Below, one piece after another: positions 41,054 through 42,320 of a stretch of DNA of 64,000 nucleotides. The notes beneath the pieces are model-generated. The model saw nothing but the letters and a program-made list of their open reading frames with translations, was not told the DNA's origin and did no database searches. The first letter of the stretch is position 1. Every line of letters starts with the position of its first letter. The translations under genes were made by a program, and so were the position numbers. Origin of the DNA: Escherichia coli (GTDB lineage Bacteria > Pseudomonadota > Gammaproteobacteria > Enterobacterales > Enterobacteriaceae); the NCBI RefSeq assembly GCF_046105845.1, contig NZ_CP151004.1; one strand, written 5' to 3'.

Positions 41054-41578
41054 ATGACACGACATTGGAATTTAATTGCCCTATTATTCTCTATGATATC
41101 TATGTCATCCATTGCTGATGATACAACGCATGCAGGTGTTGTACGCATCGAAGGAATTATAACAGCAAAGACTTGTATTGTTGCCGATGAGTCTCAAAAT
41201 TTCACAGTTAACATGCCTGATGTTCCCAGTTATACGGTGAGAAATTCAGGGAGTGTTACTGAAAAAATTGGCTTCTCTTTAAAGTTAACCCGTTGTGGCA
41301 GTGATGTCAGTCATGCCAATGTCACGTTTGATGGAACACCAGTTAGTGAAGACGCGGCCCTATATAAACTGGAAGAGGGCTCAGTCGATGGGTTAGCACT
41401 GGCTATTTTTGATAACAACAGACAAAGTATTAGCAATGGTATAAAGAGTACAAGTTATGCCCTTACACCATTGGTAGATAATACATTGCATTTTTTTGCT
41501 GCTTATAAAGCTATAAAAAATGATGTACAACCAGGAGAAGCGAATGCATCAGTTTCCTTTATCGTCACTTATGATTAA
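41054..41578 (+). CDS. Fimbrial minor subunit (FimF/FimG-like)
   Basis: 174 aa. Signal peptide, Cys pair (KTCIVA ... TRCGSD), C-terminal SFIVTYD. Confidence 0.82.
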   Translation: MTRHWNLIALLFSMISMSSIADDTTHAGVVRIEGIITAKTCIVADESQNFTVNMPDVPSYTVRNSGSVTEKIGFSLKLTRCGSDVSHANVTFDGTPVSEDAALYKLEEGSVDGLALAIFDNNRQSISNGIKSTSYALTPLVDNTLHFFAAYKAIKNDVQPGEANASVSFIVTYD

Positions 41579-42320
41579 CGTGCTGATATGCATTTTAATA
41601 TGTTGCACAAATGCGCAGGCAGGAGTTGTTGTTGGCGGTACTCGTTTTGTTTACCCAGAAAAGCAGTCATCAATTTCGGTCGAGCTTAAAAATACTGCCA
41701 GTAAAGATATGCTGGTTAAAATTTCCGTGACACCTGATGATGGACGTCAGTTAAAAGGGACACTGGAATCCCAGCCTTTACTTCCAGATAAGGCGTTTAT
41801 TGCCACACCACCATTATTGGTACTTAAACAAGATAAAAATACCAAAATAAGAATCAATCGCGTGGGGGGGCAGTTACCTATAGATCGTGAGAGTTTATTT
41901 ATACTGAATGTTGCAGCGTTACCTGCTCAGGAACAAAACTCACAGCTCAAGAATGAAAATCAACTCCAGGTGGCTGTACGTAATAGGATGAAAATATTTT
42001 ACCGCCCGGAGACGTTATCAGGTAATCCACTTGACGCTTATCAACAGTTACGCTGGTCGCGAAAGAATGAAGCTGTCACCGTTTTTAACCCTACGCCCTG
42101 GTATGTGACACTCTATAATTTATCTATTGATGGTAAAAGCATAAATGGTGGCATGGTTGCACCGTTTAGTCATCGCCAACAGGATTGGTGTCAGCGGCAA
42201 GGATATTGTGAGATTAACTGGCAAACACTGGATCTTTACAATAATGCCTTACCCGTATGGAGCGTAAAATTAAATGTTTTACAAAATAATGTGATGAGTG
42301 CAGTAGCGATACATGGATAA
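41544..42320 (+). CDS. Second periplasmic fimbrial chaperone (divergent FimC paralog with Cys-containing C-terminal tail)
   Basis: Chaperone motifs GTRFVYP, FIATPPLLVL, DRESLFILNVAALP, NQLQVAVRNRMKIFYRP, FNPTPWYVTLYNL. Start at 41544 chosen for its AGGAG SD 8 nt upstream; 41520 or 41571 are alternatives. Overlaps the 3' end of the preceding subunit gene. Confidence 0.8.
   Translation: MHQFPLSSLMINVLICILICCTNAQAGVVVGGTRFVYPEKQSSISVELKNTASKDMLVKISVTPDDGRQLKGTLESQPLLPDKAFIATPPLLVLKQDKNTKIRINRVGGQLPIDRESLFILNVAALPAQEQNSQLKNENQLQVAVRNRMKIFYRPETLSGNPLDAYQQLRWSRKNEAVTVFNPTPWYVTLYNLSIDGKSINGGMVAPFSHRQQDWCQRQGYCEINWQTLDLYNNALPVWSVKLNVLQNNVMSAVAIHG

Follow-up and report, generated by a model that had tools for sequence, protein, structure and literature searches.

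A divergent aufF allele probably encodes the second, C-x5-C-containing chaperone of an Escherichia coli auf fimbrial operon

Usher operons that carry two chaperone genes are well documented. In the ECP system, the tip protein EcpD "has a dedicated chaperone" (PMC4654587), and in Pseudomonas aeruginosa CupB4 has been proposed as the chaperone for CupB6, yet CupB4 did not bind the C-terminal peptide of CupB6 (PMC3031594). In both systems a single usher operon encodes two PapD-like chaperones (EcpB/EcpE and CupB2/CupB4), which are proposed to divide major and tip subunits between them; the two systems belong to other chaperone–usher clades than Auf. For Auf itself, the genes aufA–aufF have been listed with CFT073 locus tags, aufF (c4208) being the "Auf fimbrial chaperone" (PMC5956150), and the operon is described as having "two chaperones (AufB and AufF)" (PMC12928451). 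Auf and Ycb fimbriae are closely related (PMC3559732). The identity of aufF and the presence of two chaperones in Auf are therefore already published, and against this background we examined a fimbrial operon in a 64,000-nucleotide stretch of an E. coli chromosome (hereafter the window).

Between 31.9 and 47.6 kb, the window contains glgA, glgP, a seven-gene fimbrial operon, glpD (on the minus strand), glpE, glpG and glpR in that order. The operon lies entirely on the plus strand. It opens with an aufA-like major subunit gene (36273–36977, 234 amino acids), which matches NCBIfam major-subunit models and corresponds to a gene annotated 'fimbrial protein' in a closely related chromosome (locus L001), followed by an aufB-like first chaperone (37098–37850, 250 amino acids; best NCBIfam model FimC, E = 9e-68) and an aufC-like usher (37892–40483, 863 amino acids; NCBIfam PRK15193, 1076.9 bits against a cut-off of 995). 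Two small minor subunits come next, aufD-like (40513–41046 from the start chosen by the NCBI annotation pipeline, PGAP, with a possible GTG start of the open reading frame at 40474) and aufE-like (41054–41578, 174 amino acids), and then an aufF-like second PapD-type chaperone (41544–42320, 258 amino acids), which is the subject of this study. The last gene encodes an aufG-like two-domain tip adhesin (42334–43464, 376 amino acids from the PGAP start, with alternative ATG codons at 42313 and 42331), the C-terminal pilin domain of which matches the NCBIfam models for FimH, LpfD and BcfD. A sequence-only reading of the window had proposed that this operon carries two FimC-like chaperones, an arrangement that differs from that of fim, which has only one; both points are correct.

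The site and the gene order are those of auf. In E. coli Nissle 1917, seven colinear genes occupy the same position between glgP and glpD, and the CFT073/Nissle order (A, major subunit; B, chaperone; C, usher; D and E, minor subunits; F, chaperone; G, adhesin) is the order found in the window. The Nissle and CFT073 AufF proteins (c4208) share with the window protein a length of 258 amino acids, a 35-nt overlap with aufE and a C-x5-C motif. They differ from it in sequence, at 66–68% amino acid identity, and most strongly in the last ~22 residues. That identity can be compared with only 29% between AufF and AufB, and the AufA-like subunit of the window is 85% identical to the protein at the AufA position in Nissle. 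In a megablast search of 5,426 complete E. coli genomes, the operon was found on chromosomes only. About 262 of these genomes match it at 90–99% identity, and several hundred B2-type strains (CFT073 relatives, Nissle 1917, UTI89 and 536) match at ~75% identity over 96% of its length. These observations make it very likely that the gene at 41544–42320 is the known aufF, in a divergent allele of the auf chaperone–usher operon.

At this one site, the whole auf operon (~36070–43493) occurs in two allelic forms that are deeply diverged: between the window and Nissle, dS is 1.4–2.6 in the operon and 0.10 in the adjacent glgP. Because synonymous sites are saturated across the operon while glgP is little diverged, we regard the window form as an old alternative allele, and the pattern suggests that recombination replaced the entire operon long ago. 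A scan for promoters and terminators returned counts equal to the shuffled expectation and supported no internal promoter or terminator near aufF; Rfam and tRNA scans found nothing inside the operon. The AufA-like subunit is itself long for a major pilin: family models match it only from residue ~53–57 onward, and the signal peptide is followed, ahead of the usual donor strand at the N terminus, by an acidic segment of ~30 residues that is unusual for a major pilin.

The start and end of aufF are well defined. AGGAGA stands before the ATG at 41544, the open reading frame stops at 42320, and in an E. coli chromosome of 98.9% identity PGAP places both ends of the coding sequence at the corresponding positions (L001 8545–9321). 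Residues 1–26 (41544–41621) read as a signal peptide, cleaved between ...TNAQA and GVVVGG (site AQA/G), such that the mature protein would begin at G27, which pairs with residue 1 of mature FimC in the alignment. The PapD_N domain (residues 27–158, 41622–42017; Pfam E = 1e-29) contains R34, the G1 strand LQVAVRNRMK with K150, and a C1–D1 loop ~12 amino acids longer than that of FimC or AufB. The PapD_C match covers residues 181–229 (42084–42230; Pfam E = 3e-7), a region modelled with pLDDT of 91–95. The first 35 nt of the gene (41544–41578) overlap the preceding subunit gene, and the three candidate starts of the adhesin gene (42313, 42331 and 42334) place it between 8 nt of overlap with aufF and 13 nt past the aufF stop. 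The overlap and the position directly before the adhesin gene had been read correctly from the sequence.

Decayed auf loci occur elsewhere: in strain K_EC180 (L014 2774–7827), aufB is deleted and aufF is frameshifted. A degenerate or frameshifted pseudogene in the window, an outcome that the sequence-only reading had named as fatal to its proposal, was weighed as an alternative. Compared with Nissle aufF, the window gene contains no internal stops or frameshifts; the two proteins are 66% identical in amino acids, with dN of 0.245, saturated dS and dN/dS of ~0.095; the other six auf genes give 0.064–0.14, except for aufD, which is not computable because its dS is saturated. A cluster of 833 member sequences matches the window protein at 98% identity. 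A full-length frame coinciding with an intact coding sequence in L001, a dN/dS of ~0.1, the retention of every invariant residue and a confident two-domain structure model together exclude the pseudogene reading for this copy, a reading to which we attach almost no probability. The open reading frame is real, intact and under purifying selection.

To place the protein structurally, we compared it with chaperones of known structure. The top match in a phmmer search of PDB chains is FimC (E = 6e-29, ~30% identity), and the alignment pairs query residues 27–233 with residues 1–194 of the 205 in mature FimC. An AlphaFold model, built from a 28-sequence alignment, has a mean pLDDT of 83.7, and FimC is the top match by fold in a Foldseek comparison (TM 0.91). 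The core chaperone motifs are kept, as the sequence-only reading had stated: the cleft residues R34 and K150, invariant in an alignment of homologues (alignment A1), correspond to R8 and K112 of FimC. The G1 strand LQVAVRNRMKIFYRP, with alternating hydrophobic residues, pairs with FimC LQLAIISRIKLYYRP, and the F1–G1 loop is only 2 amino acids longer than in FimC. Two Ig-like domains, the cleft Arg/Lys pair, the G1 strand, the signal peptide and an operon encoding an usher and four Fimbrial-family subunits are the attributes of an FGS chaperone, and AufF is a canonical short-loop (FGS) chaperone of the PapD/FimC type. It shares with FimC the two-domain fold, the R8/K112 cleft, the donor strand G1 and the short F1–G1 loop. 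It differs in that FimC is the sole chaperone of its operon, lacks C-x5-C, and has a C1–D1 loop shorter by 12 amino acids and a C terminus shorter by ~14.

The C terminus had been described as an unusual tail of ~45 amino acids with two cysteines. The part of this description that stands is the string HRQQDWCQRQGYCEINWQ at residues 210–227, which does contain two cysteines; the part that does not is the status of the last ~49 amino acids as an add-on. The query segment ...SHRQQDWCQRQGYCEINWQTLDLYN aligns over FimC ...GESTVKLPSDAGSNITYRTINDYG, and the first chaperone of the same operon, which ends ...AGEITYQTINDYGATTARQKGTMQ, aligns likewise with the second. In the model, residues 201–250 have pLDDT of 88–93 and include strands at 209–213, 222–227, 239–243 and 246–251, with low values only in the last eight residues. 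An appended domain is thus excluded by the FimC alignment through residue 233, by the PapD_C match to residue 229 and by the structure model. Residues up to ~235 are predicted with high confidence to belong to PapD_C, as the final β-strands of domain 2, and the supposed tail consists of the ordinary end of domain 2 and, beyond it, a short extension under weak constraint. The true extension beyond the ends of FimC- and YcbF-type chaperones comprises about 15–22 residues (within 236–258; 42249–42317). It is poorly conserved, being the least conserved part of the protein, and both its length and its sequence differ across the subfamily. Given that AufF was already known and that most of the tail is the normal end of a chaperone fold, the finding is largely ordinary, and its consequence is mostly one of annotation.

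The extension falls within a hypervariable region. Nissle, UTI89 and 536 are 98–100% identical across the operon except in one block bounded by aufF codon ~236 and aufG codon ~230, the latter edge coinciding with the boundary between the lectin and pilin domains. Among B2 strains, identity within the block is 65–78% in the lectin domain and only 47–57% in the stretch made up of the aufF tail, the spacer and the aufG signal peptide. The aufF extension alone shows 43–57% nucleotide identity between alleles, compared with at least 98% (within B2) or about 70–80% (window versus Nissle) elsewhere. The block thus constitutes a sharply bounded hypervariable cassette (window 42249–~43020; L002 9150–9930), with at least three alleles in B2 strains. 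Its alleles were found only whole, as every matching genome covered the full block: a Nissle-type query matched 195 genomes, and a UTI89-type query matched 362, made up of 161 at ≥95% identity and ~201 that are 536-like at 84–85%. The window block is rare, with 3 genomes at ≥95% identity and 224 at ~89%, though these match the whole operon at ~98%. Such a cassette suggests diversifying selection or recombination acting on the receptor-binding domain of the Auf adhesin. Because the aufF tail is as diverged as the non-coding spacer, hitch-hiking under weak constraint fits it better than co-adaptation or a conserved appendage.

The two cysteines, C216 and C222, lie in domain 2 (CQRQGYC, 42189–42209), as part of a W-C-x5-C motif that is near-invariant in the homologues of alignment A1 from Escherichia, Hafnia, Klebsiella, Citrobacter and others, and missing from first chaperones. 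A HMMER scan of 1.84 billion representative sequences returned 2,149 chaperone matches. When these were ranked as 50%-identity clusters, C-x5-C (in one case C-x3-C) was present at the equivalent position in essentially all full-length proteins among the best 33 clusters (E ≤ 4e-32) and almost absent from the next 117. In the window and 10 other loci, the motif occurs in 11 of 11 second chaperones and 0 of 11 first chaperones. Its presence in essentially all of the closest 33 clusters and in every second chaperone of these operons, and in none of their first chaperones, establishes C-x5-C as a signature of the whole BcfG/YcbF/AufF second-chaperone subfamily rather than a peculiarity of AufF. 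W-C-x5-C is therefore a clean sequence signature that separates AufF/YcbF/BcfG-type second chaperones from first chaperones. The AufB-like protein of the window has no cysteine in its mature form, and hence no C-x5-C. Judging from its conservation and periplasmic location, the C216–C222 pair is probably a structural disulfide, made in the periplasm, that would close a hairpin before the penultimate strand.

A cysteine pair in the C-terminal domain is also found in PapD, another PapD-like chaperone, and might be thought equivalent. In PapD, C207 and C212 form a C-x4-C motif located after INDYGG, in the last strand, whereas the W-C-x5-C loop of the subfamily stands before the (I/L)xDYG motif of domain 2, which in AufF reads LDLYNN. 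This difference in position relative to the INDYG motif excludes homology between the two pairs. First chaperones of Ycb/Bcf-type operons (six loci: L003, L004, L008, L009, L010 and L012) have a different Cys pair of their own, with one Cys 3–6 residues from the C terminus. Auf-type first chaperones lack such a pair, their mature forms containing at most one Cys.

The best NCBIfam models for AufF are PRK15192 and PRK11385, with scores of 173 and 171 that fall below the cut-offs of 296 and 357, respectively. PRK11385 is the YcbF equivalog, on which protein P0026, encoded in an ssu–ycb–pyrD context, scores 539.6; PRK15192 is probably BcfG, as its number is adjacent to those of the BcfA–F models. 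Falling below both equivalog cut-offs, AufF is a sister of YcbF and of the PRK15192 family and a member of neither. It resembles these proteins in C-x5-C, in its role as a second chaperone, in the longer C1–D1 loop and in the overlap with the preceding small-subunit gene. It differs in sequence (37–48% identity) and in context: in Ycb/Bcf-type operons the second-chaperone gene closes the operon, and the gene for the large tip subunit comes after that for the usher.

Genomic context was compared for eleven subfamily members besides that of the window, and ten of these proved to be second chaperones in usher operons, the eleventh (L011) being an orphan. Eight loci (L003, L004, L005, L007, L008, L009, L010 and L012) have the order major subunit(s), first chaperone, usher, a large subunit of 334–376 amino acids, two or three small subunits and second chaperone. 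In 8 of 11 operons, then, the second-chaperone gene closes the operon, and two or three small-subunit genes stand between it and the gene for the large tip subunit. The Auf order, in which the tip-adhesin gene is shifted to the operon end, after the second chaperone, is found only in L002, L006 and the window. All 11 second chaperones co-occur with a motif-free first chaperone in the same usher operon, and the 35-nt overlap with the preceding small-subunit gene recurs in 5 of 11 (the window, L002, L003 (ycbV/ycbF), L006 and L009). The two-chaperone layout is thus standard in the Auf/Ycb/Bcf group, the second chaperones of which form a distinct and widespread subfamily, and placement next to the adhesin gene is a trait of the Auf lineage only.

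If AufF acts as its fold suggests, it would be exported through its Sec signal peptide, the R34/K150 cleft pair would anchor the C-terminal carboxylate of a pilin subunit, and the G1 strand would complete the incomplete Ig fold of that subunit by donor-strand complementation until handover to the usher. The two chaperones may divide the work, with the major subunit as the client of AufB and the tip subunits, in part or in full, as clients of AufF. As an exploratory test, we correlated pairwise distances (mirror-tree) among the seven proteins of 11 operons after regressing out usher distances. In these data, in which pairs are not independent, the closest partner of the first chaperone is the major subunit (partial r = 0.65), and the three tip subunits follow one another (partial r = 0.44–0.70). 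The second chaperone correlates weakly with every partner, from 0.36 with the adhesin to 0.32, 0.28 and 0.22 with the others. The correlations are compatible with the division of labour and do not constitute evidence for a specific AufF client.

The sequence-only reading had gone further and, from gene position, had suggested a dedicated adhesin chaperone; in that case AufF would bind only the two-domain adhesin AufG, and AufB would handle all other subunits. The placement of aufF directly upstream of aufG in Auf-type operons fits this suggestion, as does the co-inheritance, always as one variable cassette, of the aufF 3′ end and the aufG lectin domain, and EcpD (PMC4654587) and CupB4 for CupB6 (PMC3031594) supply precedents. 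However, the linkage of second chaperone to adhesin is not conserved across homologous operons: the genes are adjacent in the three Auf-type loci only and two to three genes apart in the other eight, where the homologous chaperone gene comes last, away from the large tip subunit. Since it is Auf-specific, adjacency does not demonstrate a dedicated adhesin chaperone. The coupling that is conserved is instead the 35-nt overlap with the preceding small-subunit gene, divergence in the co-inherited tail matches that of the intergenic spacer and signal peptide (43–57% identity), and the AufF–adhesin distance correlation reaches only 0.36. We therefore consider exclusive service to AufG unlikely, and comparative gene order does not support it.

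The opposite alternative is that both chaperones bind all Auf subunits and that the second copy only boosts throughput or robustness. Both proteins retain the full set of residues for donor-strand complementation, and AufF shows no specific co-evolution signal; all four Auf subunits share a ...Y-(E/Q/D) C-terminal motif, which offers no obvious basis for discrimination. Against redundancy, the two chaperone lineages are old and distinct, with 28–42% identity between second and first chaperones compared with 37–68% among second chaperones. The second chaperones have signatures of their own (C-x5-C and the longer C1–D1 loop), and both kinds are retained together across many genera. Distinct lineages, separate signatures and joint retention are typical of subfunctionalization rather than redundancy, and although full redundancy is conceivable and slightly less doubtful than exclusive service to the adhesin, we do not favour it over a division in which AufF would serve some or all of the tip subunits.

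A more specific proposal is that the C-x5-C second chaperones form a specialized disulfide-dependent class for the tip fibrillum, in which a BcfH-type oxidoreductase would form or proofread the disulfide and the Auf extension would have adapted together with the allelic lectin domain; we hold this proposal, taken as a whole, to be improbable. In some Bcf-type operons, a gene for a BcfH-like oxidoreductase of the DsbA/ScsC family follows the C-x5-C chaperone gene. The L012 protein matches PDB 7JVE with E = 7e-91, and the BcfH-like identity comes from this PDB sequence search; NCBIfam models were uninformative for the genes that follow second chaperones in Bcf-type operons. Two Bcf-type loci also carry a downstream gene resembling PglL/Wzy_C-type O-oligosaccharyltransferases. 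The downstream genes of the Bcf-type loci lie at L012 8507–9451, L008 9903–10832, L009 9770–10396, L007 9723–11429 and L008 10839–12659. The window contains neither kind of gene, in which respect AufF differs from those Ycb/Bcf-type operons that have a BcfH-like DsbA gene downstream.

Further variation was observed around the operon. In one UTI89 assembly (L013 10238–11358), aufG is annotated as frameshifted. The aufG–glpD spacer varies among strains (L002 10544–12632; L001 10604–11968): B2 strains carry three hypothetical genes there, and AST215 carries a gene fragment and IS621. In the window, this spacer (43465–43969) is only ~500 bp long and contains a match to the Rfam family ES036 (CssrF), a small RNA, at 43843–43885. 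Elsewhere in the window, the RyhB small RNA gene is present at 18938–19002 (Rfam, 83 bits), as expected for this region of the E. coli chromosome.
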